Below, piece by piece: positions 27,900 through 52,763 of a stretch of 64,000 nucleotides of DNA. Position 1 is the stretch's first letter; every line of letters begins with the position of its first letter. The stretch comes from Acutalibacteraceae bacterium. Its GTDB lineage: Bacteria > Bacillota > Clostridia > Oscillospirales > Acutalibacteraceae. The notes under the pieces were generated by a model, which saw only the letters and a program-made list of their open reading frames with translations, was not told the DNA's origin and did not search any database. Both the position numbers and the translations under genes were made by a program. The stretch lies in NCBI GenBank assembly GCA_045613805.1, contig JAZLBS010000056.1, positions 32,438-96,437 of the forward strand, given 5' to 3'.

Positions 27900-28307
27900 T
27901 TAATCATTACAATTAAAAAAGCATCTCACAAGGCAAGCTGTGGATGTCACTGCAAGGAAAAAGAAAAACAGGAGTGCACCTGTAATAACTGTACCGATTA
28001 AGCTCGTTGCAGCAAATTCAACAGCAAGCAAAACGACAGAAAGCAATACTGTTCCGACTATACCTGAAAGCAATGCCGTTACTATGCTGCAAAGATTTTC
28101 ACAGCAACGTCCGCGGAAAAGGGCAGCCGAAACAAGAACAGCAGCAAGATATACCACGGCAATACCGAGAACAACCCACAAAAAAGCGGGTGTAAGCGTT
28201 ATAACGGCAGTTATTCTGAGAAAAGCAGTAATTATACCGACAATAATACTGAATACCACAGCAATAACTGTACAACCGGGCTTGCAGCTTCCGCACGATG
28301 TTGACAT
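27900..28307 (-). CDS. Small (135 aa) four-TM membrane protein with Cys clusters at the N-terminus, the central loop and the C-terminus
   Basis: ORF with SD GGGAGGTG. MSTSCGSCKPGC.. / ..FRGRCCENLCS.. / ..CLVRCFFNCND. Confidence 0.55.
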   Translation of the reverse strand: MSTSCGSCKPGCTVIAVVFSIIVGIITAFLRITAVITLTPAFLWVVLGIAVVYLAAVLVSAALFRGRCCENLCSIVTALLSGIVGTVLLSVVLLAVEFAATSLIGTVITGALLFFFFLAVTSTACLVRCFFNCND

Positions 28308-29852: not shown

Positions 29853-29963
29853 TTTCTCGTATGTTTATATCAAACGTATTTAATTTTTCAAAGGGATAAA
29901 GATGTTATTAAATTCATCGACAGCAATTCTTAAGAAATAAAATCTTATTTATCAACAAAAAAT

Positions 29964-30010
29964 CCCCTCCTATGACAGACAGCTTAATTCTATCATAGGA
30001 AGGGTTTTCT
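29964..30010. terminator. Bidirectional stem-loop between the convergent GH43 gene and the 611-aa gene
   Basis: CCTCCTATGA .. TCATAGGAAGG, an imperfect stem. It is preceded by AAAAAA and followed by GTTTTCTTT. Confidence 0.5.
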
Positions 30011-30065
30011 TTATCCGCTTTTTTGCGTATATACGCAAATACTCCCGGAGGTTTTAAAATACATG

Positions 30066-31901
30066 CTATTTTTTCAACAAAAGAAAGATTGCAAAGCCTG
30101 TATTAATTAACGCAACCAGTATATTCAGAAATGTCCACAAATCTTTTCTCGTTGAATTTGCCTTAAATGCCTGAACAAGTGCATTGATTACCAATGCTGC
30201 CATAATAATTACACACGCAATATTATAATCGGTAAAGAATGTAAATCTTAAAGCAACAGTTAAAGCGAAAATAATTGCAAGAGCAAAAGATGAGAACTTG
30301 TAAGAATAATATGATCCATAATCACCGCAATAACAAATCAGCTGAACAATCATTATCAGATTTGCTGCCAGGACAAATCCCAACGCAACTTCACTCCACA
30401 TAAACACGCTGAAAACAGGTGCCTTCACAGCAAAAAACGCTTCCACTAAAGAAAGTAATACCGTTGCTAAAGCATACAGTGCATATTTTCTCGTCTGATC
30501 ATAAACAGCACCAACACATAAAATCATCCATAATATATTAATAACAACCATCATTATCACAAGTAAGATTGCAAAAACTTCGACGGTTTGCTTTTCGCGA
30601 CACAGCTTACAGCTTCTCGTTTTTTCCTTTAAAAGCCAAGACGAATCAGATTTGACAGTTTTCCATTTACTCCAGTTATGTTCAAACTTTTCAATTTTCT
30701 TAACTGAAGTAATTGTGCTGCATTTATCGCATACGGTTATTAAATTTACAGACTTCATACACTTCGGCTTTTTCAAATAATGCTCTGTTGTTTTGGTATG
30801 ATCAGTGCATTTTTGATTAAGCAATAAATATTCTGTGTATACTTTGTCGCATTTTTTGCATTTGTATGAAATGCTTCCTTTTTCCATATAAGCTGACTTA
30901 TCACCTTTTTTCACAACAAGCTCACACCCGATGGGTGCTTTTGTCAGCTTTTGTCCTAAGGGCTCACAGTTTTTCTGGTGAGGAATTGCAAATCCGTAAT
31001 GAAATACTATTACAGAAATTGACAAAACTGCAAACACAGCAGCAATCCATGCAGAAGGTCTGTTAATGACATCGTTCCAAAAGCCCTCGTCAATATATAC
31101 TGCAGCTATAATAACAATTGATATTATCAAAACAAGAATTGCCAAAACCACAATCCAGTTTATTTTTTCCACTTTCAAGGAATATGTTTCACCGCCGCAG
31201 GCTTTACAGCTGTAATGATTATAACCGTTTTTCCAGAAAGTTGAATGTGTAAAAGAATAAACCTTAAAATTATGACTATCGTTTACAGGAATTTTTTCTT
31301 TTTCAACGTAATCGCACTTCTTGCATTGCTTTTCCAATATTCCTTCTTTTGTACAGGTAGGTTCCTTCTTTACTTTTTCTGTATATTTATGCTCTTTAAG
31401 AGGAAGAGTCTCTTTTTTTATATCTCCGCATACTTTACAGGTATATTCTGTTACCCCTTTTTTTGCACAGGTGGATTTTATATGGTCTGACTTCGAGTAT
31501 TTATGTTCAATAACAGGAATAACTTCCTCATAGCCTTCATTACAGTAGCGACATTTTTGATGAAGCAATCCTTCACTGACACATGAAGCCTCTGTTATGA
31601 CACGATCAGTATAACTGTGCGTGTGACTGCTCAGAAAATTGTTTCTTGCCACCAGAAAATATGTAACCGCGAGGACAACAATAATGAAAGTGACCACACC
31701 GGCTACAGCCCAGTTTTTCACTTTATCTTTACGGAGCGTTTCCAATTTTAAAGATGAACCTTTATAATTTTTTAAACTACTGAAATAAAGTTCACTGTCA
31801 GAAAATTTTTTGTGTTTTACAAGAACCATATTCCATACATTCCAAAGAATAAAGGATAATACTGCTGTAATCAAAAAACCTATTATGACAAATTTCAGCA
31901 T
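30066..31901 (-). CDS. Polytopic membrane protein (611 aa) with two loops of Cys/His mini-repeats; last gene of the TerY-P-type operon
   Basis: About 9-10 hydrophobic helices. Loop 1 carries four repeats of H-x-[YF]..[ST]-C-x2-[EKG]-G-x5-C-x2-C (for example EHKYSKSDHIKSTCAKKGVTEYTCKVCGD and EHKYTEKVKKEPTCTKEGILEKQCKKCDY). Loop 2 carries further CxxC pairs. SD GGGGGAG; starts 16 nt after the upstream stop. Confidence 0.75.
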   Translation of the reverse strand: MLKFVIIGFLITAVLSFILWNVWNMVLVKHKKFSDSELYFSSLKNYKGSSLKLETLRKDKVKNWAVAGVVTFIIVVLAVTYFLVARNNFLSSHTHSYTDRVITEASCVSEGLLHQKCRYCNEGYEEVIPVIEHKYSKSDHIKSTCAKKGVTEYTCKVCGDIKKETLPLKEHKYTEKVKKEPTCTKEGILEKQCKKCDYVEKEKIPVNDSHNFKVYSFTHSTFWKNGYNHYSCKACGGETYSLKVEKINWIVVLAILVLIISIVIIAAVYIDEGFWNDVINRPSAWIAAVFAVLSISVIVFHYGFAIPHQKNCEPLGQKLTKAPIGCELVVKKGDKSAYMEKGSISYKCKKCDKVYTEYLLLNQKCTDHTKTTEHYLKKPKCMKSVNLITVCDKCSTITSVKKIEKFEHNWSKWKTVKSDSSWLLKEKTRSCKLCREKQTVEVFAILLVIMMVVINILWMILCVGAVYDQTRKYALYALATVLLSLVEAFFAVKAPVFSVFMWSEVALGFVLAANLIMIVQLICYCGDYGSYYSYKFSSFALAIIFALTVALRFTFFTDYNIACVIIMAALVINALVQAFKANSTRKDLWTFLNILVALINTGFAIFLLLKK

Positions 31902-31917
31902 TTAATCTCCCCCGTTT

Positions 31918-33165
31918 TTATTTGTACTTTCTCCAATTAAATATGTTGATTTTCCGCCCTTTTTCATATGAATCTACAGCCATATCATAAATTGTCTTAT
32001 TTGTCAGCATCTCAATCTTTTCCTGACATTCAATCTTCCTTTGCTGTGAATCCTTGAAATCAGCCAGTCTTTCAAACATTTCAGACGCCTTTTTAAGTGC
32101 TGTGACATTGGCAGCCTTACTCATAAGCTCCATTGCTTCATCGTAAGAAACATTAACTCTTGCTTCCTGAAGCCTTTTTTTACAAACGGCAAATATATCC
32201 GAAAATTCTGCTGCCTGCACGTACTTCTCATAATCCTTAAGAAATTTTTCGAGCTCCTGTGCCAGTACCTTGTAATCCGATATATTCTCTGCAGCCGCAC
32301 ATCTTGCCCGTGCGTCTTTTAAATCACGCTCAAGCTCAACAGCCCACTTTTCCTTAAGACATTCATCTAAACTGACCTTTGTCTGCAAAATAACCTTTTT
32401 TGCCGCTTCACTTAAAGCGTCACGCTCAAGAGCAACGATTGTCCTGTAAATTTTTATTTTTTGTTCAAGATCGGCTTCTTCTGCACTGTGCTTATCCTTA
32501 AGAATTTTTTCTAATTGCTTTTCAGCTGTCAGTTTATCAATAAAATCCAGACAGATACCATAATTTTTCTTTGCATCATTGAAATCCAATATCTCTGAAA
32601 ATAATCCTGCGGCTTTTTTATAATCTTCAATGCAAGAAGCAGAAGAAAGCACCGCCTTTGCTGAAAAATATGTTTTCTTACTGTTACATAAATTCTTTTC
32701 CTGACGGCAGATTTTTATCTTCTCATCCGAATCCATAAATCCGACAATCTTTTTAAACTGATGCTCCGCCTCGGTATATTCCCGTTCGGCATCTGTCCAT
32801 TTTTTTGCAGCGTTATATGCTTCAGCCTTTTTAAGCTGCAAGAGAGCATCGTCGTATATTTTTTCATTGACAGAAATTTTTTCAGCACAAAACTGACATT
32901 CGTTATACTTACTGCGACCGTCCTTATAATTCAAGGCCTTGTTATAAAAATCACTCAGAATTAAATAATCTCTTGATGTAACAGCTTTACCATAAAATTG
33001 CTCGGCAAATTCATAAGAACATTCCGCGGCTGATTCCATATCTATATTTTCACCGCACATATTACATGCTCCTATTTCTTTGAAAAAGCTCTTAGCATCA
33101 CATAAATTTATTATATTATATAAATTTTTTGTGTCACAATTTTTACACAACCAGACAATTTCCAT
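31918..33165 (-). CDS. Zinc-ribbon plus helical-repeat protein (415 aa), unknown function
   Basis: The preferred start is the MEIVWLCKNCDTKN.. ATG at 33165, with a GAGGA 7-8 nt upstream and 4 nt after the kinase stop. N-terminal CxxC..CxxC. Recurrent TPR-like units end in [FL]-x-D-[SA]-x(5,7)-C (FMDSDEKIKIC, FNDAKKNYGIC, FKDSQQRKIEC). Confidence 0.6.
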   Translation of the reverse strand: MEIVWLCKNCDTKNLYNIINLCDAKSFFKEIGACNMCGENIDMESAAECSYEFAEQFYGKAVTSRDYLILSDFYNKALNYKDGRSKYNECQFCAEKISVNEKIYDDALLQLKKAEAYNAAKKWTDAEREYTEAEHQFKKIVGFMDSDEKIKICRQEKNLCNSKKTYFSAKAVLSSASCIEDYKKAAGLFSEILDFNDAKKNYGICLDFIDKLTAEKQLEKILKDKHSAEEADLEQKIKIYRTIVALERDALSEAAKKVILQTKVSLDECLKEKWAVELERDLKDARARCAAAENISDYKVLAQELEKFLKDYEKYVQAAEFSDIFAVCKKRLQEARVNVSYDEAMELMSKAANVTALKKASEMFERLADFKDSQQRKIECQEKIEMLTNKTIYDMAVDSYEKGRKINIFNWRKYK

Positions 33166-33169
33166 ATTG

Positions 33170-34297
33170 TTATCCTCGATTCTTTTCCGTAATGTACCGT
33201 TTGTGAAGTGCAACATCCGCACGAAGAGCTAATTTAGAGCCGTCTTTATAATCTATTTTAATGTTACCGTTTGATAAAACCTCAAAGCTTTCCGCATCCT
33301 CCGGAAAATTTTCTCCTTTTATGTATTTATTATTTTTAACAGATAACAGATTCCAACGTTTCTTCTCCGGCTTTTCTTCTTTATCAATTCTGATGTAAGA
33401 CTCCGCCTTATCCGGATCAATACTCCGGAGATATTCTACAATATCAGCCATTGACGGACGTTTATCAGGCTGTCTGTCAATCATTTTCAGCAACAATTTT
33501 TTCAACCATTGCGGAATTTTATCAGATACATCTACCTTTACACCTTCAAGAACGGCATTATAAAGATAATCCCCTTTTTGAGGCTTTTTAAAGGTGAAAT
33601 CCTCTCCTGACCAATATTTATGAAAAATAATTGCCATTGCGAAAACATCACTTTTAACAGTAAATTTGTAATCGCCGTAGTATCCTTTTTTTAATTTGTA
33701 TGATGCCATTTCGGGACTCATAAAAAAGTCAGTAACAAACAATTCCTCCGGAACCGGTATATCTTCTTCCAGATGAGCGGCATCAAAGTCAATCAGTGAA
33801 CAGGTCAAAACCCTTGATTTTGTAACCGTAACAGGAATATTTTCCGGCTTTATATCACAGTGAATAATTCCCTGAGAATGTAAGAAGCTCACGGAATTTG
33901 CTGCCGTTTTAAGAATCAGCAGTTTTTCCTTGTCGCTCAACCGTGCGACTTCATCAATTGATTTTTTCTCTATCTCTCTCCAAGGAGTCACCTGATAATA
34001 TCTGTTTTTATATAAAAAGAAATCAACAGGTGCGACAAAATTACCGCCTCCGTATTTTGCTATACGGGCATTGATGGTTTTTCTCTCTTTTTCAAAACGG
34101 TCACACAAATAATTTTTGCGATTGATTTCCTCAGCGCTTGGACTTTCATCAGGATCATCTCTTATAACAGGGCGAGCCGGACCATCGAATCTTTTCAGAA
34201 AAAAATACTCTTTATTTTTTTCTGCCTTCCAATAAACTGCGCTGGACGTAAGTACGTATTCTTCGTCTATAATTTTGTATGAATTAATTGTCCTCAT
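33170..34297 (-). CDS. Ser/Thr protein kinase (Hanks type), TerY-P triad component
   Basis: YFFLKRF (catalytic Lys region), HCDIKPENI (HRD-type catalytic loop), LIDFDAA (DFG-like), FMSPEMAS (APE-like). Overlaps the upstream phosphatase gene by 14 nt. Confidence 0.8.
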   Translation of the reverse strand: MRTINSYKIIDEEYVLTSSAVYWKAEKNKEYFFLKRFDGPARPVIRDDPDESPSAEEINRKNYLCDRFEKERKTINARIAKYGGGNFVAPVDFFLYKNRYYQVTPWREIEKKSIDEVARLSDKEKLLILKTAANSVSFLHSQGIIHCDIKPENIPVTVTKSRVLTCSLIDFDAAHLEEDIPVPEELFVTDFFMSPEMASYKLKKGYYGDYKFTVKSDVFAMAIIFHKYWSGEDFTFKKPQKGDYLYNAVLEGVKVDVSDKIPQWLKKLLLKMIDRQPDKRPSMADIVEYLRSIDPDKAESYIRIDKEEKPEKKRWNLLSVKNNKYIKGENFPEDAESFEVLSNGNIKIDYKDGSKLALRADVALHKRYITEKNRG

Positions 34298-36257
34298 ACA
34301 GATTTACTTCCTTTCTGAACAATACGCTACCGTGCACAGATAAACCTGAAAGATACTTTCCGTATTCTCTGTTGTAGCTTTCTGAAACAGCATTTCTTTG
34401 CTTAATAAGCTCCTTGAGCTGCTTTTGCAGACTGATATACCGCAGCAGCTCGGAAAATTCTTTTTGATGTAATCTTTCCTCCGGTATATATTCCTGAAAT
34501 CTGTCTTTGTAAAAAATCTCTTCAGCAATTTTTTCACAGAAGGCTGCAACAATTTTTTTATGAGCTGCATTTTTACAGTTCTGAACATATACATCAGTTA
34601 TCTGAGACTTAAGCTCCTCTATTTTTCCGTAGCAATCCAACATATTTTCGCAGATTACTTTAAAGCTTTTTTTTCTTTTTATTTTTAAAGGAGAAAAAAC
34701 ATGTATCCTTTTTAAAATCGCAAACCCATTACAGATGTCCTCGCGATAGAAGCGCTCAATTTCTTCATTCCGATAATCGAAATATTCATCGACTTTTTCT
34801 TTGTTCTTATGATATAGCTGACAGTCATTCTTCGCTTTTTCTATATTCGCGGTCAGTCGTTTTGTTATTTCAAAAATCTCATCCAGAACACCGCTGCTGC
34901 AATTTTTTTCTACAGAAAGGTGTTTTGTTTTCAAAGCGGCAAGATCACAATTTATTATTTCAGAATATTCAGAGAGAGTTTTCTTCTTTTCGTAATACTC
35001 TTTTGTAGCAGAAATTATTTCATCAGAAAATCTGACCGAACCATATTCGCAGCAAAGTTTTTTCAGAAACTCTATATATCTGTCTCTCAACACTGCTTCT
35101 TCACTGTTACACATATCCTGCTTTTCTTTGCGTTCACAATCTATCTTGTAATTTGCGTTTCTTATCTCCCGGCTTACTGTATCACAGTCCGTCAAATTCC
35201 GGAACAATGGATCAGCATACAAAATTTCCTCATCCTTATGATTTTCAAGATAATTCAGTATCTCATCTGTAACAAGACGGATAATATTATCCTTTTTTAT
35301 GTTAAGCTTATGCTTTGCTTCACACAGTTCTCTCTCGGTTTCTGTATATTGCTGCTTCAGTTCCATATATGGTCTGATGTAGTTTTTAATAAGCTCAGAC
35401 CCATATCTTTCTCTCAGCTCTGATTTCAGCTCATCATCAGCAGAAAAGCCGATTATAACCCCCGCCATACTGCAGTCGTCCCTTTTAGTGAAACCGATAT
35501 CATCCAGCCTACATCCGATTTCTTCAGAAAGAAGATGAGCTTTTTCCTCGCTTATATTATCAGATTTACCAAGCCATTCAATCAGATATCCTTCCTTCTC
35601 AAAGTTACTTATCGGATCAGTAAAGCCGTCTGTTGTAGCCAAAAGAACACCCCTTCGGCTAAGCTCATAGCATGAAAAAGCAATGTGAAAATCATCATCA
35701 GCAGAAATACAGTTAGCTACCTTACACTCCGCCATCGAAAGATTTTCGCTTTCTCCGTCTTCCGCAGACAGCTTAAACAAGCCATGCCTGTTCCACCACA
35801 AAATCTCGGAATCCCCGGCACACAGAACAGTTGCTTCTACCTTTGTTTTATAAATCTTATAAATCACTGCCGCAAAAGTGGTAGGCAAAAGTCTGAAGCT
35901 CTTACCGTGTACCGTAAGAACAAGATTATCTTTCCTGACGCGGTAAAGCAAATCTTTGCGGATGCTGTCTCCAAGCTCAGTCACAATTTTTCCGATACTG
36001 CCGGCATCACCAAAAGCATCAGTCAGTCTTTCATAATTTTTGTTCAGAAACCTTTCAGCTGCTTCAGATGTTGCTCTTGAGCCTAAATAAGCCGATGTGT
36101 AATTTTCTCCGTTTACTGCATGTTCTGTCATACCGGTTGCACCCATACCGTCACAAACAATCATAAAGCCTTGTTTATTTACAACAGGAGCATCTTCGCC
36201 TTTGTTGCTTATTCTTTTTTCTATTTTTGCACGGTCAACTGAAAAAAATATATTCAT
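34284..36257 (-). CDS. PP2C-family Ser/Thr phosphatase domain (about 270 aa) with a ~390-aa helical or coiled-coil C-terminal extension
   Basis: MIVCDGMGATG and ATTDGFTD are PP2C metal-binding motifs. The remainder is Lys/Glu-rich helical sequence. Confidence 0.75.
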   Translation of the reverse strand: MNIFFSVDRAKIEKRISNKGEDAPVVNKQGFMIVCDGMGATGMTEHAVNGENYTSAYLGSRATSEAAERFLNKNYERLTDAFGDAGSIGKIVTELGDSIRKDLLYRVRKDNLVLTVHGKSFRLLPTTFAAVIYKIYKTKVEATVLCAGDSEILWWNRHGLFKLSAEDGESENLSMAECKVANCISADDDFHIAFSCYELSRRGVLLATTDGFTDPISNFEKEGYLIEWLGKSDNISEEKAHLLSEEIGCRLDDIGFTKRDDCSMAGVIIGFSADDELKSELRERYGSELIKNYIRPYMELKQQYTETERELCEAKHKLNIKKDNIIRLVTDEILNYLENHKDEEILYADPLFRNLTDCDTVSREIRNANYKIDCERKEKQDMCNSEEAVLRDRYIEFLKKLCCEYGSVRFSDEIISATKEYYEKKKTLSEYSEIINCDLAALKTKHLSVEKNCSSGVLDEIFEITKRLTANIEKAKNDCQLYHKNKEKVDEYFDYRNEEIERFYREDICNGFAILKRIHVFSPLKIKRKKSFKVICENMLDCYGKIEELKSQITDVYVQNCKNAAHKKIVAAFCEKIAEEIFYKDRFQEYIPEERLHQKEFSELLRYISLQKQLKELIKQRNAVSESYNREYGKYLSGLSVHGSVLFRKEVNLYEDN

Positions 36258-36295
36258 AGCATTATTACCTCAAAAACAAACATATACTATCTGTT

Positions 36296-37051
36296 TCAGC
36301 GTAAGGTTTCACCAAGAGTTTTCATCAGACCTTCCGTTGAAATATCACTTCCGCCCTGTTCCGGCTTGATGTAGATAACACGGCAGTTATCAAAATCTCC
36401 TTCACCGAAATAATTCCACGGGTATACGCCTTCCGGAGCAAAAATAGCCATGCGCTTACTGTAGATGTCAGTATTTATATACACATTGCTTCGGTCTGAA
36501 TTTTCTTTGCCCCACCAATCCATCAGCTCTCGGTAATTTTTCGGCATACCGCTAGGATAATGCTGATCGGTTCCGTCTTTTGACTGTTCCAGCTTGTGTG
36601 CAGGTGCATCAGTGAACAAAACAATAATGTGGCGCTTTCTTATATTGCTGTCGAAGCTTTGACACCATTTACTTTTCATCGCAAGAGCCAATGCTTCCAG
36701 GCTGTTTTCCGGTATATCACCGCCACCATTTGCCGACAGAGAATTCACAAAATTATAAAAAGCTTCTGTTTCCTCAGGCAAATTAAAAAAACTTGATTCT
36801 TCAAATGCCTTATCGGCATCGCAATAAGCATCGCGGAATCCGATAACCTTTACTCTTAAACGACTTATATTGCGCTGATAACTCTTCAGCATTATTTCCT
36901 GCAGCTCCGAGTGTAAACTCCTCGCAGTTTCTTTGACTTTATTTATGATAGGTGTCATACTTTTTGTAATATCGATGCAATACACGATATCAACATAAGT
37001 ATCCATTACATCCAGGTTCTTACTGCCTAAAAAATCAAACTCTCCGCTCAT
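36296..37051 (-). CDS. von Willebrand factor A (vWA) domain protein, TerY-like
   Basis: MIDAS-type motif VYCIDITKSM (D-x-T-x-S), ..ANGGGDIPENSLEAL.., IIVLFTDAPAH. SD GGAGGA. Confidence 0.75.
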   Translation of the reverse strand: MSGEFDFLGSKNLDVMDTYVDIVYCIDITKSMTPIINKVKETARSLHSELQEIMLKSYQRNISRLRVKVIGFRDAYCDADKAFEESSFFNLPEETEAFYNFVNSLSANGGGDIPENSLEALALAMKSKWCQSFDSNIRKRHIIVLFTDAPAHKLEQSKDGTDQHYPSGMPKNYRELMDWWGKENSDRSNVYINTDIYSKRMAIFAPEGVYPWNYFGEGDFDNCRVIYIKPEQGGSDISTEGLMKTLGETLR

Positions 37052-37071
37052 TCTTTTTCCTCCAAAACATT

Positions 37072-37431
37072 TTACTGACCTATGCCGTTGTTACAGGATT
37101 CAACACTTTCAATAGATCCTTCGATAGGATCATCATTACCGCAATGAGCGCATATAGCAGTTTTTTTTGCTTTATCATGACATGTATAATTACCGCAAGC
37201 GCCACATCTAAAAAAAGATCTGTTCCCGCAGTGAGGGCATTTATATTGCGGTCCTAGTCTGATCGAACCGTAGTTAAATTGCATATTTTCTCCAAAAGAG
37301 CTTTCTCCCGGCGGAAGGGTTTTCACACCATAAGTCAGAACCCAACGGTCATCTGCCGCTAAATCATGACGAACATAAAAGGTCTCCCGATTTTCGGCGC
37401 ACTTAACCTTCAAAAAAAATAACGTTTTCAT
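37072..37431 (-). CDS. Small (119 aa) triple CxxCGN zinc-ribbon protein (TerY-C-like metal-binding module encoded as a separate gene)
   Basis: ..CPHCGNRSFFRCGACGNYTCHDKAKKTAICAHCGN.. First gene of the operon. SD AAGGAG. Confidence 0.65.
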   Translation of the reverse strand: MKTLFFLKVKCAENRETFYVRHDLAADDRWVLTYGVKTLPPGESSFGENMQFNYGSIRLGPQYKCPHCGNRSFFRCGACGNYTCHDKAKKTAICAHCGNDDPIEGSIESVESCNNGIGQ

Positions 37432-37459
37432 TCTTTTTCACTCCTTAAAATTTTAAATT

Positions 37460-37488
37460 ATTATATCATATTCATGCATTATTGTCCA
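37460..37488 (-). promoter_or_regulatory. Sigma-A type promoter of the TerY-P-type operon
   Basis: The minus strand reads TGGACA-17 nt-TATAAT with a TG extension (TGaTATAAT), about 28 nt upstream of the ATG at 37431. Confidence 0.55.
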
Positions 37489-37610: not shown

Positions 37611-39821
37611 ATGTTTAATACTTTTGGATTATATACTTCTCTGAATATAGCCGCCCGTATTTTAGTTTATGTTTTTAATATTTTAAATTTTAAAGCTAAA
37701 TCAGAAGTAATCGGTAGAGGTACAATATTTTTCACAAAACCAATAAGTAATAAATCTGAAAAACGTTTTGTAACAATTCTTCTTACATTAGGTGAAATCG
37801 TTATCATTTCATTCGCTCAATATCAGCTCAGCAGTATTAACAGCATCTTCGGCGAACTTGTCGGAACAGAAGCCAATTATTTCGGAAAACTAATTTTTTC
37901 TCCGTTCTTAGTTTCTTTTTTTTGTCTTTTGTTAGGTATAGATGTTTTCAAACAAATGGATATCATCACTCCGGCTTTACCTCTTGCTCTTGCTGTTTCA
38001 AAGTTTGGATGCTTTTGTACAGGATGCTGTCGAGGAATAGAGTGCTCTTTCGGATTGTATAATTATGACACTGAGCAAACAGAATTTCCTGTTCAATTGG
38101 TGGAAATGGCTCTGGCAATATGCATTTTTATTTTTCTTATGCTATGGCGAAAAAAAGCCAAAGAAGGAACTATGTTCCCTATTTATGTTATTCTTTACAG
38201 CTCCACAAGATTTTTCAGCGAATTTCTCAGAGCTGAAGAAAATGTTTTCCTTTTCCTCAAAACCTATCATATCCTGTGTATTTTAGGTACAGCCACAGGT
38301 GTTTTTCTGCTGTTCTTCATAAAAAAGCAAAAAGAAAGAATCCGTCAATTTTACAGCAATTTTTTTGATGCAATCGAAGATATTTTAAACGAGATCGCTG
38401 TAAGACTCGGAATAAAAAGCAGCCGTGAAATTATACACCATAAAAACAAAAAGAAGAAAAAATCATCATCAATACAAAAGGCCGAAAAAGCAACAAAAAT
38501 ATCCGATATGAAAAGATGGATAATAATCTGGACGCTCGGTCTTATCGGACAAATAGGATGGAATATTGAAGGTACCTGGTTCAATACCTTTGTATATGAA
38601 AAAATAGATAAAACACCTTCTATTATTACTCCTATGCTTATTCTCAGTGCCTTAGCTACAACAGTCTCAATTTTTCTGTTCGGAACTTTAACAGACCGAA
38701 CAGGCAAACGAAGAAATCTTATAAGCTCAGGCTTCATCGGTTGGGGTTTGCTTTTTATTTTCTTTGGAGCTACACAGTTCATAGCCCGAAAAAATCTCGC
38801 TGTAGGTATTGCATCAATCCTTGTAATGGATATGCTGATAAGCTTTTTTGGTTCAATGAGTACAGATGTCGGTTACAGCACCTGGCTTACTGATATAATG
38901 AACAATAATAACCGAGGACAAATAGGCGCTGCAATCGCTACACAAACTGTATTAGGCTCTCTGTTAGGTAACATTATCGGCGGATATATAGTCGGCAAGG
39001 AAAACAATTATCTCAGACTGTTTGTTGTGGTCGGCTCTTTGTTTGCTTTTCTCGGAATGATTTCTATCTTTCTTTTTGATAAAAAAGATGACGTTAAACC
39101 ATCTGTCAGAGGTAGTTTCACCAAACAGCTTTCAGGCATTTTTAATTTCAAAACAATATTAAAAAATAAAGAATTTATGTGGGTTAATTTAGCTGTCGCA
39201 ATATTCTTCACAGGTTATAATACCTATTTCCCTCATCTCGGCAATATGTTAACTCAATATATCGGGTACTCCGCCACGCAAATGGGTATAATCAAAGCTG
39301 TTCCCATGATTTTTGCTATGCTTGCTACATTGCCTGTCTCAAAATTCATCAACAAAAACAAATTTGTCGAGGTTTCTCTGATTTCGGTTGTAACCGGATT
39401 AATAGGAATTTTAAGTGTTTTTAAAACAAATCCGGAAAGTATTGACGTAAGCAAAACCTTTAATTTCAGACTGTTTTTTGCTATATTCCTTGTAGGTGTC
39501 AGTTATATCATTATGTTGCAGACAACAAAGACATGGACTAAAAATCTGCATCCGCAGGAAACTAAAGGACAGTTTGAGGGCATATGGGCAATCTCCTTTG
39601 CTCTCATACCCGCAATCATTGGTTCATATGTCGGTGAGTGGATTGTTAAAACCGGCGGAGAAACACTGTTTAACACTGTCACTCAAAGGTACGAGTATAT
39701 CCCCAACGGAAAAGTATTTTTAGTCGGTGCAATAATTTCCACATTCAGCTTTATCCCCATAATTATTGCAAAAAAATACGCCAATAAAAGAATCAGTGTT
39801 ACTCAAACAGAAAAAAATTAA
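37611..39821 (+). CDS. Fusion protein: N-terminal Lgt-family domain (about 250 aa) joined to a C-terminal MFS-type 12-TM transporter domain
   Basis: N-terminal part: ..SKFGCFCTGCCRGIECSFG.. and ..EFPVQLVEMALAI.., the same signature as the stand-alone paralogue at 16395-17135. A Lys-rich linker follows (HHKNKKKKKSSSIQKAEK). Then about 12 hydrophobic helices with MFS-like loops (..GTLTDRTGKRRNLI..). It is a single uninterrupted ORF. Confidence 0.65.
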   Translation: MFNTFGLYTSLNIAARILVYVFNILNFKAKSEVIGRGTIFFTKPISNKSEKRFVTILLTLGEIVIISFAQYQLSSINSIFGELVGTEANYFGKLIFSPFLVSFFCLLLGIDVFKQMDIITPALPLALAVSKFGCFCTGCCRGIECSFGLYNYDTEQTEFPVQLVEMALAICIFIFLMLWRKKAKEGTMFPIYVILYSSTRFFSEFLRAEENVFLFLKTYHILCILGTATGVFLLFFIKKQKERIRQFYSNFFDAIEDILNEIAVRLGIKSSREIIHHKNKKKKKSSSIQKAEKATKISDMKRWIIIWTLGLIGQIGWNIEGTWFNTFVYEKIDKTPSIITPMLILSALATTVSIFLFGTLTDRTGKRRNLISSGFIGWGLLFIFFGATQFIARKNLAVGIASILVMDMLISFFGSMSTDVGYSTWLTDIMNNNNRGQIGAAIATQTVLGSLLGNIIGGYIVGKENNYLRLFVVVGSLFAFLGMISIFLFDKKDDVKPSVRGSFTKQLSGIFNFKTILKNKEFMWVNLAVAIFFTGYNTYFPHLGNMLTQYIGYSATQMGIIKAVPMIFAMLATLPVSKFINKNKFVEVSLISVVTGLIGILSVFKTNPESIDVSKTFNFRLFFAIFLVGVSYIIMLQTTKTWTKNLHPQETKGQFEGIWAISFALIPAIIGSYVGEWIVKTGGETLFNTVTQRYEYIPNGKVFLVGAIISTFSFIPIIIAKKYANKRISVTQTEKN

Positions 39822-40093: not shown

Positions 40094-40166
40094 CAGCTTG
40101 TCGAAAATAATTTTTCGACAAGCTGAAACAGAGTCGGTTGTCTTCAACAACTGACTCTGTTTTTTT
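40094..40166. terminator. Tandem hairpins at the 3' end of the NRPS operon. The second also works as a strong plus-strand terminator.
   Basis: Hairpin 1 is a perfect 14-bp stem: CAGCTTGTCGAAAA (40094-40107) pairs with TTTTCGACAAGCTG (40112-40125). Hairpin 2: ACAGAGTCGGTTG (40128-40140) pairs with CAACTGACTCTGT (40148-40160) with one G-U pair, followed by T7. The T-run overlaps the TAA of the minus-strand NRPS gene. Confidence 0.65.
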
Positions 40167-43100
40167 ATATATCCTTCATTATAATACGTATGAGTTCATC
40201 ACTGTCATCGCTTTGGAAATAATGGCTTTCAGAGTCAATAAAGCTGATATTTTCCACAAACTCCGAATAATTTTTCCACAGTATTTCAGCACTTTCATAT
40301 TTTTGGGTAAACCGATCATTTTTACTTAAGATTATACTTGTCGGTGCTTTTATTCTTTTAGCCAACGCAGAAAATGCAATCCTTGCGAAATCGGTATCTT
40401 TTCTGAAGTCCTTTAATATTTTTTCAATTTTCTTTTCCGAAAGACAGCTGAAGTTTACTCCTGCACCGATCAATATTCTTTTAAGAATTAAATCAGGTAC
40501 ATAATTCCATGTATTTCGTTTTTCTGCCTTTACAGGAGGAATACTTGCTGCAGCAAAATAATGCTCAACTGATATTAAATTGCTTTCAAGATAAGATATA
40601 ATCTGCAAAGCTACAGCCGATCCTACACAATGTGAATAAAACATTATTTTCTTATCTTTTGAAAACTTTGCTATTTCACTTGCTGCATTTTCACATTCCT
40701 CCAGAGAATGTAAATACCTGATGAAATAAACAGCAATATCATTTCTTGTCTTTTTTAGAGAACCAACAAAATTACCAAAGGCCTCTGAACTGCCACCGGC
40801 AAAAGGCAGAATAATAAGCATCCTTTTAGCTTCTTGAGGCACATATAGGGCTTCAAGATATTTGGTCTCTCTTATCGGAGCCTCGCTAAGCACAGAAGCA
40901 AGCATTGCAGGAGTAGGATTTCTCATAAACTCTGCTGCAGAAACATTTTGAAATCTATCTTCGCTCAAAAGAGAAATCATAGAATAGCTTGTTCCGCCCA
41001 AATCAAAGAAATCACTGTTTCTACCAACATTCTTTTCTCCTAAAATTTTCTCAAATACACGGCAAATATATCTTTCCGTGTCATTGACAGGCTCTGAAGT
41101 TTCTTCTTCAGTTATGATAAATTCCATTTCTGCAAGTGATTTTCTGTCAAGCTTGCCGTTGCTGTTAAGAGGTATAGAATCAAGATGAACAGTGAAAGAC
41201 GGTACCATATATTTAGGCAGCTTATTACGACAAATTTCTTTTACAGTTGCCTCGTCAACAACCTTGCCGCTGTAAAAAGCAACAAGAAACTCCCTGCCGT
41301 TCTCCTTTTTCAGAATAACTGCTACAGACTCGACCTCCTCCAGAGATAATATTACAGCTTCTATTTCTCCGATTTCAATACGCTGACCGTTTAATTTAAT
41401 CTGATTATCGATTCTTCCGCAGAACACAATATTACCGTCTTCACGCCAATATGCATTATCTCCGGTTCTGTACAGCTTTCCTTCTCCGAAGGGGTTGTCT
41501 ATGAACTTTTCTGCAGTAAGGTCTGGGTTATTAAGGTAGCCCTGTCCCACATTCATACCTGCAATGCAAAGCTCACCCATTACACCTAAGGGTACCGCCT
41601 TATTATATTTGTCTACTATATACATCTGTGTATTGTAGATGGGCTTACCGATAGGTACAGGATCTGCATCTGTCGGTGCACAGTCATAGTAGGTTACGTC
41701 TACTGCACATTCAGTAGGTCCGTACAGATTGTGAATGCCTACCTTACTGTAATCATACATACGGTAGAATCTCTGTATGAGATTCGCAGTAAGTGCCTCA
41801 CCTGACAGGAAAACATATCTTACACTTTCAAATTTATATATCTCTTCCTTGTGTGTTTCAAGATAGTTTAAAAACAGCTCAAATACAGATGGCACAAAAT
41901 GAATGTGTGTCACCTTGTTTTTATGAACCTCTTCAAGTATCTTTGCCGGAAGAAAATGTTCGCCGGGCTTTGAAACTGCGAGAGAGCCTCCGCACATACC
42001 CCACCAGAAATGCTCCCATACGGATACGTCAAAGGTATAGGGGGTTTTCTGTAAAATCACATCATCTTTTACGAGAGGATACTTGTCGTGCATCCACAGT
42101 ATTCGGTTAACGGCTGATTTATGGCTTACCATTGCACCTTTTGGATTTCCTGTTGAGCCTGAGGTGTAAATCACATAAGCAGTATCCTCCGGCTTTGCAT
42201 TGCATTCAGGTATAACCATATTTTCATCTGATGCTTTTTTCATCAGCTCAGTCACATCAATACAGGGGATGTTTCTGATCTTATCCGCAAACTTGCCCTG
42301 AACAACTGCAGCGGCTGCTGAACTGTTTTCGAGGATATATTCTATTCTTTCCTGAGGATAATCAGGGTCTATGGGCAGATATGCATTACCGCCGCGGATT
42401 ATTCCGTAAATAGCGCAGTACATTTCAGGTGAACGTTCTGCAATAACTGCTATTACAGACTTTTCTTCTTTTGTAGCTGTTCTGATTTTTGCATCAAGCT
42501 TTTCCGATGCTGTCAGAAGCTCACCGAAGGTAAGAGCTCTTTCTGTGGTTCTTATGCAGATACGCTCTTCGTTTTCCTTAGCAGTTTTTTCGAATAGGCT
42601 GTAAAGTGTTGCATTTTCTGGAATGTCATAGCTGTGTTCAGTTTCGTTGAAGCCTTCAAGCAGCTTCATATCCGTTACCGATATATCCTTAACCTTCTTT
42701 TCTCCGTCAGAGTACAATTCGAGAATAGAAATATAACTGTTGACAAACGATAAAATCTCCTCTTCGGTATATGTATCTTTCGAGTAAGATGTTCTGATAA
42801 TATATTCGCTTTTTTCTTTGAAAACAGCAACAGAAAGATTAAACTCTGTTTTTTCATTAAAGAAAACAGTCTTAGGTGATAAAAGACCTTTTTCCATATC
42901 ATCAATAAGATCTTCGCCTATATAATAATTTTCAAAGGCAAACAATGCATCGATCAATCTTCCGTTAATATTACATATTTTATAAATTTCCGAAAGAGAC
43001 AGTATTCCATATCTGTTAGCGTCAATCGTCTGCTTTTGTGTTTCAGCCATTAAATCTGCTAAAGTAGAGGTTTCATTACTCCTAAATCTTATTGGAACAG

Positions 43101-51343: not shown

Positions 51344-51368
51344 CTTTCAACCATATAATAATAAGACA

Positions 51369-52016
51369 TCATTTTTCCAGCGGAGTATCGTATAGTTTTA
51401 AATATGTATTACTTTCTTGTGCTGCATGTTTGCAAAAGAAATTAAAATAACGAGTAAATTTTCTTGCTTGCTGTTCTGTTAAATTGTCAACGCCTGTAAA
51501 AGCTTCTGCTTCTTCAAATAAAAATGTTGCATTGTGTGCCACATACTCTTTGCCGAGCTCAACATAAAAACAAAGAGTTTGCTCAAAACTTACATTCTCA
51601 ATCATGCCATAATCAATGCCGTGACTCAATATTCCACCAAAAGAACAGTCCAAGTATGCTGTAAAAGATTCTAAATATTTTTCACAACATCTGCGTTGAG
51701 AAGCTTCCGGATAACCGCTTTGCAATACATATGAAATGTTTTTATTTTTAATAGAATTTTTATTCTTAGATAATAGTTCTAAAAACTCCTTAAACAGACT
51801 TGGTACAATACCCACATAAACAGGTGTTGCAAAAACAATGTTATCTGCATCTGAAATTTTCTTTATTATTTGTTCCCATTCTGTCCTTTTGCATAAATAC
51901 AAAATTTCTGTTTCGCCCTTGCTTTCCAATATTCCTTTTTTAAAAGCCTTTATAAGCCTGTTTGTGTTACTGTATTCAAGAGAATGAGGTGTAGCGCTTA
52001 TTATCAAAACATGCAT
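51369..52016 (-). CDS. Flavodoxin-fold NAD(P)H-dependent FMN reductase-like protein
   Basis: MHVLIISATPHS..NTNRL..(x)..DADNIVFATPVYVGIVPSLFKEFLE, typical of the FMN_red/flavodoxin_2 family. SD GAGGAGG. 13-nt overlap with the upstream gene. Confidence 0.6.
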   Translation of the reverse strand: MHVLIISATPHSLEYSNTNRLIKAFKKGILESKGETEILYLCKRTEWEQIIKKISDADNIVFATPVYVGIVPSLFKEFLELLSKNKNSIKNKNISYVLQSGYPEASQRRCCEKYLESFTAYLDCSFGGILSHGIDYGMIENVSFEQTLCFYVELGKEYVAHNATFLFEEAEAFTGVDNLTEQQARKFTRYFNFFCKHAAQESNTYLKLYDTPLEK

Positions 52017-52516
52017 TTTATCGCCTCCTCAATATCAGCCAAGTGAAAAGTTCCCAGCGATTTATCACTGAAATGGTCCACATATAAATCCAACCAAGAG
52101 TTAAGCATAGTATTATCTGCTTCACCCTTATAAAGAACACCAATATTAAACTCTTTTGAATACCTTGACGGGTGTCTTATTTGCCCGTTTCTCCATTCGG
52201 AATAAACTATAACAAAACAATATCTTCTTTCAAAAAGCCGCATAGCTTTGTAGCTTAGAAAATTCATTTCTGTATCGGCAATAAATATTATATTGTCATA
52301 TTTAAAAAATAATCGTGCAATATCATTGTAATCGTCATTCAAACAACAAACACCAGGATTTTCAATCATACATTTATTGCATCCCGTACAATGCATAATA
52401 TTCATTTCACAGGTATTTACAACCTTTACATTGTCTGATATTTCCGAAAGTTTTTTTATAGCCTTAATCGCATCTTCATCATCTTCCGGCAAAGTATTAA
52501 TTATAAGCAAACTCAT
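52004..52516 (-). CDS. Flavodoxin-fold protein with a Cys cluster (iron-sulfur flavoprotein-like)
   Basis: MSLLIINT.. ..IMHCTGCNKCMIENPGVCCLNDDY.. ..DNIIFIADTEMNFLSYKAMRLFER resembles the Isf/NADPH-dependent FMN reductase family. Confidence 0.5.
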   Translation of the reverse strand: MSLLIINTLPEDDEDAIKAIKKLSEISDNVKVVNTCEMNIMHCTGCNKCMIENPGVCCLNDDYNDIARLFFKYDNIIFIADTEMNFLSYKAMRLFERRYCFVIVYSEWRNGQIRHPSRYSKEFNIGVLYKGEADNTMLNSWLDLYVDHFSDKSLGTFHLADIEEAIKCMF

Positions 52517-52536
52517 ATTTTATCATCTTCCAAATC

Positions 52537-52758: not shown

Positions 52759-52763
52759 ATTAA

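Follow-up and report, generated by a model that had tools for sequence, protein, structure and literature searches.

A six-gene vWA–PP2C–kinase operon of TerY-P-like architecture in an Acutalibacteraceae genome, with a clade-specific membrane protein

A run of six genes on the minus strand of contig JAZLBS010000056.1 of an Acutalibacteraceae bacterium, a Clostridia genome of gut type (37431→30066 of the window, as the whole analysed stretch of 64,000 nt is called here), raises the question which of its parts belong to a known phospho-switch and what the others might contribute. The TerY-P triad was defined by Anantharaman, Iyer & Aravind 2012, as far as it is summarised in PMC11090510, PMC4978471 and PMC7699616, and anti-phage activity was reported for it by Gao et al. 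2020, according to the summaries in PMC7699616 and PMC11090510. The original prediction had recognised a TerY-P triad (vWA, PP2C and kinase) at this locus and had named it as an anti-phage candidate; the core has indeed the architecture described in PMC11090510 and PMC4978471, and the second point agrees with the summaries of Gao et al. It had also placed four components outside the triad: a split-off TerY-C-like module, a coiled-coil extension of the phosphatase and the two downstream genes.

The coordinates of all six ORFs were checked and the intergenic distances from g1 to g6 were recomputed, and both were identical to those given before (20, 38, -14, 4 and 16 nt; Table 1), g4 overlapping g3 by 14 nt. 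The near-consensus TGGACA-17-TATAAT site proposed as the promoter is present and was the top-scoring one, with AAGGAG downstream of it, 7 nt ahead of the g1 ATG. Its role was assigned from position only and, by position and score, it is a plausible rather than a proven operon promoter, since sites resembling promoters abound in this AT-rich DNA (the scan gave 40, with 26 expected). At the other end a strong terminator hairpin was added to the earlier description, which had given none; 0 of 200 shuffles folded as well, and the consensus terminator scan, limited to loops of 3-8, did not report it, presumably owing to its 9-nt loop. The hairpin is predicted to close the transcription unit and, judging from promoter, tight spacing and terminator together, the six genes appear to form a single unit. 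The operon was confirmed as real and tightly packed, and its grouping as more than chance, because seven further, independent contigs show the same six-gene order between unrelated flanks (eight loci in total, 24–69% identity). In the window the flanks comprise GH43, PI-PLC, an MFS-LGT fusion and NRPS genes, and no mobile-element or defence genes were found among the nearby flanking genes.

Table 1. Positions of the operon features in the window.
Feature	Position	Strand	Basis or description
Candidate promoter, sigma-70-type	37460..37488	(-)	TGGACA-17-TATAAT with extended -10 TG; 11/12 matches, top scan site
g1, 119-aa stand-alone TerY_C-like zinc-binding protein	37072..37431	(-)	three CxxCGN motifs, Pfam TerY_C
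g2, 251-aa cytoplasmic vWA protein, intact MIDAS	36296..37051	(-)	Pfam VWA_4
g3, whole gene, 657 aa	36257-34284	(-)	ORF
g3, N-terminal PP2C phosphatase domain, aa 1-270	35448..36257	(-)	AF2 and Foldseek
g3, C-terminal tail of long helices, coiled-coil-like, aa 274-637	34284..35447	(-)	DSSP on AF2 model
g4, 375-aa Hanks-type Ser/Thr kinase	33170..34297	(-)	Pfam Pkinase, 75.6 bits
g5, 415-aa soluble protein	31918..33165	(-)	N-terminal zinc ribbon, TPR/Sel1-like helical repeats
g6, 611 aa, about 10 TM segments	30066..31901	(-)	TM scan
Predicted intrinsic terminator	29956..30011	(-)	hairpin with 16-bp main stem, then U6; -28.8 kcal/mol, z = -6.4

The description of g1 as a triple-CxxCGN zinc-ribbon protein was borne out, with CxxC motifs at residues 65, 76 and 94 and GN after each, and the protein is TerY_C-like: it reached 25.1 bits against Pfam TerY_C, slightly below the 28.4-bit cut-off, its orthologue in locus L005 reached 32.7 bits, and a paralogue covers the entire 129-position profile. 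This stand-alone gene is no extra component, because the classical ter cluster normally has its TerY-C as a separate gene ahead of terY (terY-C Y X Y W; PMC12054061) and because stand-alone homologues of g1 occur in 30 of the 94 loci of the lineage. The vWA assignment of g2 is supported by a match to Pfam VWA_4 (45.8 bits, cut-off 27 bits) and by the expected MIDAS motif D27-x-T29-x-S31; D27, T29, G110, G111, D112, T147 and D148 are invariant among 18 homologues, S31 is nearly invariant (at least 90%), and a hydrophobic-segment scan revealed no TM segment.

For the PP2C domain of g3, the AF2 model (pLDDT 88) was matched by Foldseek to tPphA, PstP, PppA and Stp1 in the PDB, with E down to 8e-10 and TM(target) of about 0.7. 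Among 19 homologues, six of which match Pfam PP2C_2, residues E21, D22, D36, G37, D210, G211, D260 and D261, metal ligands included, are invariant. The tail, previously estimated at about 390 aa, comprises about 365 aa and is all-helical with helices of 30-50 residues throughout, and in the PDB its profile matched only coiled-coil or designed helical proteins. Its sequence is detectable in 13 loci only; PP2Cs with long C-terminal tails (proteins of 580-1040 aa) are common in the wider lineage, a correction to the view of the extension as an extra component.

The g4 product is a cytoplasmic, active-looking Hanks kinase with intact catalytic residues: K35, H146, D148, N153, D170, F171, P195 and E196 are invariant among 15 homologues, D172 is nearly invariant (at least 90%), and its profile matched 716 kinases in the PDB at E<=1e-10. 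It ends in a small conserved beta-rich domain (aa ~320-372), and no relatives were detectable on enterobacterial ter plasmids. The vWA, PP2C and kinase assignments thus all passed profile or structure tests.

In g5 both the zinc ribbon and the helical repeats of the original prediction were recovered by homologue alignment. The ribbon has the form W-x-C-x2-C...C-x2-C-G, and the protein ends in a conserved tail, KINIFNWRKY. Of the three possible starts (415, 434 and 380 aa) the 415-aa one is best supported: homologues can be aligned from its first residue, no variation was seen at C7, C10, C34 or C37, and its ATG has a GAGGA ribosome-binding site in front. Inside the gene there are also a promoter-like site and an alternative start. 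No Pfam family matched g5, and only 7 relatives at E<=1e-30 were found among 1.84 billion representative proteins. Its ribbon is shared more widely than its body: among 72 loci with a kinase, 46 have a gene near the kinase that begins with this ribbon, as does the gene after the kinase in the L005/L007 variant, and the ribbon corresponds to the C-terminal one that is fused to canonical TerY-P kinases (PMC11090510). The claim that g5 lies outside the triad holds for the helical-repeat body and fails for the ribbon.

The g6 product is, as anticipated, polytopic with Cys/His-repeat loops. Seven CxxC-containing repeats were found by sequence scan, and two large loops (aa 85-249 and 301-444) are accompanied by a conserved basic cytoplasmic loop (aa 28-63), in which the serine of K-x-F-S-x-S-E is nearly invariant, and by a C-terminal 6-TM bundle. 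The large loops are probably extracytoplasmic, because the Cys repeats align only with signal-peptide-bearing surface proteins that carry LRR_5, GH25, PG_binding, dockerin or Big_2 domains; this topology is based on repeat homology and the positive-inside rule rather than on a dedicated predictor, and the AF2 model reached a pLDDT of only 61, a low confidence. With its loops probably outside, g6 looks more sensor-like than effector-like. Its N-terminal half is kept in eight loci and its C-terminus varies: the bundle is present in five and absent from three of the eight clade members (L003, L008, L011) as well as from four further database homologues, and relatives swap or add extracellular-type modules (an F5/8-type-C domain or a beta-rich insert). 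The conserved part is therefore taken to be the TM hairpins with the outside loops and the cytoplasmic loop. Pfam and NCBIfam searches revealed no similarity of the bundle to known pore or channel families, and no separate effector domain was recognisable in the window; the suggested sensor and effector arms stay hypothetical, the g6 loops fitting a sensor.

The genes g5 and g6 occur always together, in the same order and only in this small Clostridia clade (8 of the 11 informative loci carrying this PP2C type), which answers the question of their co-occurrence: they are conserved with the triad within one clade, and only g6 as a whole and, in g5, the body of helical repeats are truly clade-specific. 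Across the eight loci the core proteins share 35-69% identity and g5 and g6 only 24-52%, as is typical of specificity components, which diverge faster. The operon is part of a far larger vWA–PP2C–kinase lineage with at least 485 metagenomic relatives, where it is common to find TerY_C as a separate gene, a long tail on the PP2C and, at the start of a gene near the kinase, a W-x-C-x2-C...C-x2-C-G zinc ribbon. This particular system is rare, with only 23 clusters of PP2C-like proteins among 5.8 billion and, under a stringent scan pattern, 2 of 185,579 species representatives; searches of viral contigs gave no close relatives. In relatives the vWA gene is duplicated up to threefold and entire output modules are exchanged, g5 and g6 being replaced by transglutaminase, M48 or kinase-STAND genes in L005, L007 and L017, and some copies are truncated or IS-disrupted (L008, L012). 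Neighbours of conflict type include a CHAT protease trio, TIR, serine recombinases, a kinase-NB-ARC-TPR protein, transglutaminase, M48 peptidases and an ADP-ribosylglycohydrolase with RtcB. Sister operons of the same vWA lineage carry the ribbon on TM proteins with Flg_new_2 or DUF6273, in most cases on a single-pass membrane protein, and also encode Big_2 surface proteins or Sel1-repeat proteins; the simple ones are abundant in gut metagenomes and adjoin Ig-like surface proteins and lipoproteins.

Taken together, the operon is read as a Ser/Thr phospho-switch of the TerY-P kind that is coupled to the membrane, with sensing at the envelope and the kinase as output, a tentative reading given a probability of about 0.45. 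The g6 protein would be the surface-exposed receptor subunit and g5 an adaptor whose zinc ribbon docks on the kinase/PP2C/vWA core, while the repeats and the conserved tail of g5 would make contact with the basic loop of g6 in the cytoplasm. The helical PP2C tail would scaffold the complex and hold the phosphatase beside the kinase, which would be silent at rest. Envelope perturbation, most plausibly phage attachment or another surface attack, would shift the balance to the kinase, and phosphorylation of the vWA/TerY_C module, of cellular targets or of both would lead to protection or growth arrest. The kinase would itself be the output, as it is in other defence systems that are built on kinases. 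This reading is supported by the domain and catalytic-residue evidence, the single unit and its synteny, the surface-type repeats of g6, the lower divergence of the core, the module swapping among g6 relatives, the ribbons on TM proteins in sister operons, the conflict-type neighbours and the reported anti-phage activity of TerY-P, as summarised in PMC7699616 and PMC11090510. It is weakened by the lack of PADLOC matches for vWA and PP2C, the ordinary flanks in the window and the negative search in viral contigs.

The position of the simple sister operons beside Ig-like proteins and lipoproteins fits ordinary envelope signalling too, and a non-immune function is an unlikely though serious alternative: a split receptor-kinase, like a PASTA kinase/PP2C pair, whose extracellular Cys/His repeats would signal the state of the cell wall, of metals or of redox and adjust the physiology of the surface or cell wall. 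The surface and metabolic genes flanking the operon, the abundance and conservation of the simple sister operons, the metal binding suggested by both the Cys3His-type repeats and TerY_C, and the missing vWA and PP2C matches in the defence library all point that way. However, the very patchy occurrence, unrelated flanks in every locus, vWA duplication, variable g6 C-termini, swapped output modules and CHAT, TIR, STAND and recombinase neighbours are traits of a conflict system and not of housekeeping. The direction of signalling could also be reversed, as in an abortive infection in which the cytoplasmic vWA/TerY_C proteins sense a phage protein or a metal or redox change, the kinase is freed from PP2C, and g5 and g6 act as the effector whose 6-TM bundle depolarises or permeabilises the membrane. 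This would accord with the published prediction of TerY-P as a cytoplasmic metal-sensing phospho-switch (PMC11090510), with the bundle at the end of g6 in five loci and with the other candidate output modules in L005, L007 and L017, but it is judged quite improbable, as the bundle is the part that several g6 proteins lack and that resembles no known pore, and the surface-type loop pair is the part that is kept. That the genes are chance neighbours or a decaying operon without joint function could be suspected from the internal promoter-like site and start in g5 and from the damaged relatives, and is very improbable indeed given intact ORFs, invariant catalytic and metal-binding residues, tight or overlapping spacing and an order retained in eight loci at identities down to 24-35%. 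The operon joins a known type of kinase/phosphatase/vWA switch to a putative adaptor with a zinc ribbon and to a membrane protein that is probably exposed at the surface, and this rare variant may sense cell-surface events.

With TerY-P the operon shares the co-operonic vWA, PP2C and Hanks Ser/Thr kinase genes, an associated TerY-C zinc domain, a kinase-associated zinc ribbon and a mobile, patchy distribution, often beside conflict genes. It differs in that the vWA is of the Pfam VWA_4 lineage, the ribbon sits on the next gene, g5, unfused to the kinase, g4 has its beta-rich domain in place of a zinc ribbon or OB fold, and the helical PP2C tail and the polytopic, probably surface-exposed membrane protein are added; no ter or DNA-processing genes were seen among the adjoining genes. 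An automatic TerY-P call, suggested earlier as a check, is unsupported because no PADLOC model matched the vWA or PP2C of this operon, nor did any match those of five sister operons. The classical tellurite-resistance cluster (terY-C Y X Y W / terZABCDEF; PMC12054061) likewise has TerY-C directly upstream of the TerY vWA, the order of g1 and g2, whereas TerZ/A/B/C/D/E/F, TerX and TerW are absent in and beside the present operon and g1 is only marginal to Pfam TerY_C. By architecture, the actinobacterial GAP1-N2 GTPase-linked modules of kinase, PP2C and vWA (Kaur et al. 2020, PMC7159879) are alike in the stand-alone vWA, the adjacent PP2C and an active kinase with zinc ribbon, beta-rich domain or TM helices. 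The host here belongs to the Clostridia, and GAP1-N2 GTPase, MoxR and STAND NTPase were undetected in the six operon proteins and the nearest scanned flanking genes.

The kinase domain also scored against the models of defence kinases in PADLOC-DB (Stk2, PD-T4-6, MADS MAD6, MkoA), for which the kinase as output is the simplest model as it is here. The best matches of g4 were mad6 (1.5e-26), PD-T4-6 (2e-18) and MkoA; only the generic kinase fold is common to them (80 bits against NCBIfam MAD6, cut-off 460 bits), and none of their partner genes is present. In the PASTA-type receptor kinase/PP2C pairs of Firmicutes, Stk1/Stp1 and PrkC/PrpC, an extracellular sensing module is linked, as is proposed here, to a Hanks kinase whose opponent is a PP2C from the same transcript, and weak NCBIfam matches to Stk1 and Stp1 as well as Stp1 structures among the Foldseek matches were obtained. 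In the present operon, however, the proposed sensor, the proposed adaptor and the kinase are three separate proteins, PASTA domains are absent, vWA and TerY_C partners are present, and the system, unlike a core gene pair, is rare and mobile. In the PpkA/PppA/Fha1 threonine-phosphorylation pathway of the Pseudomonas aeruginosa H1-T6SS, PpkA has a periplasmic, kinase-fused vWA domain; the vWA here is separate and cytoplasmic, an FHA protein and a secretion system are absent, and no sequence relationship extends past the shared folds, the PppA structure 6jkv being among the Foldseek matches of g3. The working principle proposed here is similar: in that pathway a switch of Hanks kinase, PP2C and vWA relays an envelope signal via membrane accessory proteins to a defensive output.

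The six minus-strand genes g1 to g6 were found at the positions and with the gaps that had been predicted (see table), the spacings being 20, 38, -14, 4 and 16 nt. The vWA, PP2C and kinase genes g2, g3 and g4 are adjacent and co-directional with gaps of 38 and -14 nt, and this arrangement is kept in all relatives. The promoter named in the original prediction is present as the best site in the scan and is followed by an AAGGAG ribosome-binding site. Since promoter-like hexamers are frequent in the AT-rich DNA of the window (40 found versus 26 expected), the promoter of g1 is plausible by its position rather than proven. A terminator hairpin, which the prediction did not contain, follows g6, and with the promoter it bounds the operon at both ends. 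Neither Rfam elements nor tRNA genes were found at the operon, and its flanks show nothing convincing in the way of direct repeats or att-like sites. The drop in GC content at about 30 kb (0.42 to 0.35) was considered as a sign of a discrete island but was rejected as evidence, because it reaches far past the operon and through the region of nonribosomal peptide synthetase (NRPS) genes.

Features of the six-gene operon, with positions in the window
Feature	Position	Strand	Description
Promoter	37488-37460	-	TGGACA-17-TATAAT, TG before the -10 box; top-scoring site of the promoter scan
g1	37431-37072	-	119 aa; TerY_C-like zinc protein
g2	37051-36296	-	251 aa; vWA protein
g3	36257-34284	-	657 aa; PP2C with helical tail
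g4	34297-33170	-	375 aa; Hanks kinase
g5	33165-31918	-	415 aa; zinc ribbon with helical repeats
g6	31901-30066	-	611 aa; polytopic membrane protein
Terminator	30011-29956	-	hairpin followed by U6; -28.8 kcal/mol, z = -6.4

The assignment of the three core proteins as vWA, PP2C and kinase holds, by Pfam for g2 and g4 and by the AF2 model, Foldseek and invariant ligands for g3. The g2 protein matches VWA_4 with 45.8 bits (cut-off 27 bits) and carries the D-x-T-x-S MIDAS motif, with D27, T29, G110, G111, D112, T147 and D148 invariant and S31 nearly invariant (at least 90%) in 18 homologues; match and motif place it among the vWA proteins in general and do not separate a 'TerY-like' from another vWA clade. 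No solved structure was matched by the vWA family profile in the sequence search. The g3 protein itself has no Pfam match, while PP2C_2 is matched by 6 of its 19 homologues. Sequence searches of the PDB with g3 alone and with the 19-member profile returned only chance or coiled-coil matches, so that the PP2C call depended on the AF2 model (pLDDT 88) and Foldseek. Residues 1-270 of this model match the PP2C structures tPphA, PstP, PppA and Stp1 (E 8e-10, TM(target) about 0.7), residues 274-637 form long helices, and the metal ligands E21/D22, D36/G37, D210/G211 and D260/D261 are invariant in the 19 homologues. For g4, the Pkinase match scored 75.6 bits; K35, H146-x-D148, N153, D170-F171 and P195-E196 are invariant in the homologue alignment and D172 of the D-F-D motif is nearly so, and the protein ends in a beta-rich domain of about 55 aa without Cys pairs. 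The g4 kinase and the g3 phosphatase hence look active and g2 appears MIDAS-competent, as far as can be judged from their residues.

The g1 gene is a stand-alone TerY_C-like gene, not fused to the vWA gene. Its product scored 25.1 bits against TerY_C, under the Pfam cut-off of 28.4 bits; an orthologue with 46% identity at locus L005 scored 32.7 bits, above the cut-off, and a paralogue spans the full profile. No membrane segments were detected in g1 to g5.

The g5 gene opens 4 nt downstream of g4 with an N-terminal zinc ribbon in which C7, C10, C34 and C37 are invariant. The ribbon is followed by helical repeats ending in F-x-D-S/A-K…C and by a conserved tail, KINIFNWRKY. Only seven true relatives of g5 were found when 1.84 billion representative proteins were searched in full with HMMER. 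In the window copy, an AT-rich insertion of 12 aa lies between the two zinc knuckles (region 33052-33165, especially about 33075-33137); none of the nine homologues has it. Additionally, a promoter-like GTGACA-16-TATAAT (33137-33110) lies inside the zinc-ribbon region; next come AGGAG and an ATG in frame (M36, nt 33060). A gene caller chose this start, giving a 380-aa product. A g5 isoform lacking the zinc ribbon is possible.

In the g6 protein, about ten segments are hydrophobic and seven repeats contain CxxC. Beyond its orthologues, it was matched only via its Cys/His-repeat regions (residues about 86-248 and about 342-445), mostly by proteins that start with a signal peptide and carry LRR_5, GH25 and SH3, PG_binding, dockerin, Big_2 or Listeria-Bacteroides repeat domains. 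The loop between TM1 and TM2 comprises 36 residues, 10 of them Lys or Arg, and belongs to the most strongly conserved parts of g6: K31 and F33 are invariant there, and S34 and E37 nearly so. With the repeat regions outside and this loop inside, the positive-inside rule is satisfied; we infer that the repeat regions are extracellular and the TM1-TM2 loop cytoplasmic. Some relatives of g6 have an additional beta-rich insert or F5/8-type-C domain and some do without the C-terminal six-TM bundle, leaving as conserved core the TM hairpins, the outside loops and one cytoplasmic loop, and such a core would fit a receptor better than an effector. The beta-rich insert was considered as a pre-peptidase C-terminal (PPC) domain, a reading that was dropped as there was no Pfam match. 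The AF2 model of g6 is weak (pLDDT 61, pTM 0.38). The protein seems internally duplicated, a Cys-repeat region plus TM helix segment being present twice; the DNA contains repeats at 30539-30578, 31109-31148 and 30078-30095, including direct repeats 570 nt apart, and residues 286-492 cross-match the first repeat region of a homologue.

The grouping of g5 and g6 with the triad in one extended operon was borne out by seven further independent loci (L001, L002, L003, L008, L009, L011 and L012), in which the full order g1-g2-g3-g4-g5-g6 recurs; the refuting case, extra genes that are not kept with the triad, thus does not hold for this clade. The flanks of these loci are unrelated and include the his operon, genes for a T4SS coupling protein and ferredoxin genes, among others. 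Identity to the window proteins ranges from 24% to 69% across this clade and is lowest for g5 and g6, which are invariably found together, and the vWA gene is up to threefold duplicated. Tailed PP2C proteins of the g3 type are rare, forming 23 clusters in a set of 5.8 billion proteins. At three loci with the same PP2C type (L005, L007 and L017), g5 and g6 are replaced by another module composed of a short TM protein opening with a g5-type zinc ribbon, a small polytopic protein and a second TerY_C, with a transglutaminase-like protein, an M48 peptidase, DUF1810 and a kinase-NB-ARC-TPR protein as further members. The relatives come from metagenome-assembled genomes of Lachnospiraceae and Acutalibacteraceae. 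A scan of genome contigs with the PP2C alignment gave two species, an undercount, as the pattern was too strict and misses the MIVCDGMGA of the window itself. Viral contigs scanned with the PP2C and vWA alignments yielded no relatives or just vWA proteins with 26-30% identity; these scans give no evidence of phage carriage. Two clade members show signs of decay or remodelling: L008 has a Y1 transposase between two kinase copies and a PP2C gene shortened to 569 aa (region 9116-14044), and the PP2C gene of L012 (7713-8888) encodes only 391 aa, most of the helical tail being missing.

At least 485 relatives turned up when metagenomes were scanned with the vWA alignment, and 94 loci, namely the best 80 of these plus the earlier loci, were analysed. 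Among these 94 loci, a matching PP2C is present in 78, a kinase in 72 and a stand-alone TerY_C protein in 30, and g5 and g6 occur in only 8, the window and the seven loci of the same order. The PP2C proteins of this wider lineage are often 580-1040 aa long. In the classical ter cluster, a stand-alone TerY-C gene preceding terY is standard (PMC12054061). The claim of three extra components therefore stands in part: the stand-alone TerY_C is no extra, being standard in ter clusters and common in the lineage, and the PP2C tail is likewise widespread, whereas what is truly specific to the clade is g6 as a whole and, in g5, the repeat body and the tail. The zinc ribbon of g5 has counterparts, since a neighbouring gene starts with W-x-C-x2-C…C-x2-C-G in 46 of the 72 loci that have the kinase, and in most cases a charged linker and a TM helix come next; these zinc-ribbon TM proteins or their neighbours bear extracellular-type modules (Flg_new_2, Big_2, DUF6273) or Sel1 repeats. 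A Herpetosiphon plasmid carries a minimal triad of the same lineage (vWA 42%, PP2C 27% and kinase 31% identical to those of the window), and a Calothrix plasmid encodes a vWA protein (42%), a kinase (29%) and a 1042-aa PP2C_2 protein without a BLAST link to g3.

A simple sister operon recurs with little change at some 30 metagenome loci (L055-L090), mostly in human-gut assemblies; its order is ZnR-TM-Flg_new_2, signal-peptide Big_2 x3, PP2C (377 aa), kinase (335 aa) and vWA (230 aa). One more small gene, lipoprotein-like in L057, usually comes after the vWA gene. This sister operon has no PADLOC match.

In four relatives an ADP-ribosylglycohydrolase and a calcineurin-like phosphoesterase are encoded directly upstream of the operon on the same strand, and two of the four add RtcB and a HAD 'Swiss-army-knife' RNA-repair domain. 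An ADP-ribosylglycohydrolase also occurs near the operon of L008, and two copies flank an unrelated TerY-C/kinase/VWA/PP2C operon on a Prevotella plasmid (positions: L001 5629-8794, L009 4119-8769, L011 181-1706, L015, L008 233-1012 and L095 2465-7089). In the window, no ADP-ribosylglycohydrolase, phosphoesterase, RtcB or HAD genes adjoin the operon. A conserved set of three genes encoding proteins of about 410 aa, about 220 aa and a CHAT protease of about 870 aa is a neighbour of the system in two divergent members of the clade, with 30-32% identity, and a CHAT-like domain is also encoded upstream of the Herpetosiphon triad (L003 8641-13134, L008 1233-5795 and L013 2748-5924); the set may be a linked effector module or a mere defence-island neighbour. 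Around the window operon, a 736-aa fusion of LGT (prolipoprotein diacylglyceryl transferase) and an MFS transporter, an unusual architecture, is encoded divergently at 37611-39821 (plus strand). An NRPS cluster at 40165-54494 (minus strand), comprising a 1284-aa C-A-T-TE protein, a 2450-aa ORF, an FMN reductase and a stand-alone AMP-binding enzyme, shares the low-GC block (0.32-0.42) of the operon. Further minus-strand ORFs encode a 135-aa Cys-rich, strongly hydrophobic protein without a family match (27900-28307) and a 2595-aa protein (8482-16269).

The preferred reading, to which we assign a probability of about 0.45, is that g6 acts as receptor, g5 as adaptor and the kinase as output. The zinc ribbon of g5 would dock on the core and its repeats or tail would touch the cytoplasmic loop of g6, while the PP2C tail would scaffold the complex and hold the kinase silent, until a perturbation of the surface tips the balance to the kinase, itself the output. 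This reading is based on one conserved transcription unit that unites kinase, PP2C, vWA, zinc modules and a membrane protein with surface-type loops; that these genes are chance neighbours or a decaying operon is highly improbable. Ordinary envelope, metal or redox signalling would suit the mundane flanks in the window and the abundance of simple sister operons, but it is somewhat unlikely given an extremely patchy distribution, swapped modules and, in relatives, neighbours of the conflict type (the CHAT trio, TIR, recombinases, STAND and ADP-ribosylglycohydrolase/RtcB). Abortive infection working from the inside out, with g6 as the membrane effector, is unlikely too, and the dispensability of the TM bundle of g6 argues against it.

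An outside-in version of the receptor reading would make the operon, together with the larger gut-associated lineage in which membrane proteins bearing extracellular Ig-, lectin- or Cys-repeat domains carry the zinc ribbon, a split 'receptor-kinase' immune system detecting outside threats. In this doubtful extension, g6 would detect, at the cell surface, an attaching phage, a bacteriocin or a contact-dependent attack, and g5 would relay this to the TerY-P phospho-switch before foreign DNA or protein enters the cytoplasm. We know of no bacterial anti-phage system for which outside-in sensing is established and, to our knowledge, TerY-P is among the least understood of the validated systems, with neither trigger nor output known. 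The operon may represent a natural version with the zinc ribbon of the kinase placed on an adaptor and wired to a putatively surface-exposed membrane protein, and its lineage is large, common in human-gut metagenomes and without a match in PADLOC-DB 2.0.0. If the membrane arm is a sensor, it offers a testable model for coupling envelope events to an immune or stress response via a Ser/Thr kinase and phosphatase, and it would then suggest that the zinc ribbon of canonical TerY-P kinases serves for docking to partner proteins. If it serves ordinary envelope signalling, it would still be a new split receptor kinase architecture in Clostridia.

For the comparison with known systems, the definition of the TerY-P triad (Anantharaman et al. 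2012) was taken via PMC11090510 and PMC4978471. By its predicted architecture the operon is a TerY-P-type triad, with vWA, PP2C, kinase and the single-operon arrangement all present, and to this extent the TerY-P interpretation stands. The TerY-C feature is borderline in g1, which stands alone as in the ter cluster, and the kinase-ribbon fusion is missing: canonical TerY-P kinases end in a zinc ribbon, or in an OB fold in phage-tested versions (PMC11090510), whereas g4 lacks such a fusion and the ribbon sits on g5, which reads as a split of the canonical fusion. In published TerY-P work, associations with CoCoNuT and T7SS have been described. No Ter domains were found by Pfam in ten neighbouring proteins, which contain GH43, PI-PLC, MFS and LGT, NRPS and similar domains instead, and the g4 kinase has no detectable relative on ter plasmids. 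PADLOC-DB 2.0.0 gave no match at E<=0.1 for the vWA or PP2C proteins of the window operon or of five sister operons. The matches of these operons and of the Prevotella TerY-C operon were to generic kinases only and are uninformative on TerY-P membership, a TerY-named model being absent from the listed matches even for the Prevotella operon (kinase matches listed in full). A literature search of limited extent found no description of the six-gene form. Actinobacteria show a theme of kinase-ZnR/TM, PP2C and vWA (Kaur et al. 2020, PMC7159879), and the vWA-MoxR/VMAP ternary conflict systems (Kaur et al. 2020), in which a MoxR AAA+ ATPase and a VMAP partner adjoin the vWA protein, differ in that no AAA+ or MoxR domain occurs in g1 to g6 or the scanned flanking genes.

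Support from this analysis for a likeness to PpkA/PppA and PASTA systems consists of PppA and Stp1 among the Foldseek matches of g3 only. By mode of action, the closest parallels are the PpkA/PppA pathway of the Pseudomonas T6SS and PASTA kinase/PP2C pairs. The triad is known; the receptor-like membrane arm, the lineage-wide zinc-ribbon adaptor theme and the lack of PADLOC-DB matches to vWA and PP2C provide a useful route to what TerY-P senses.
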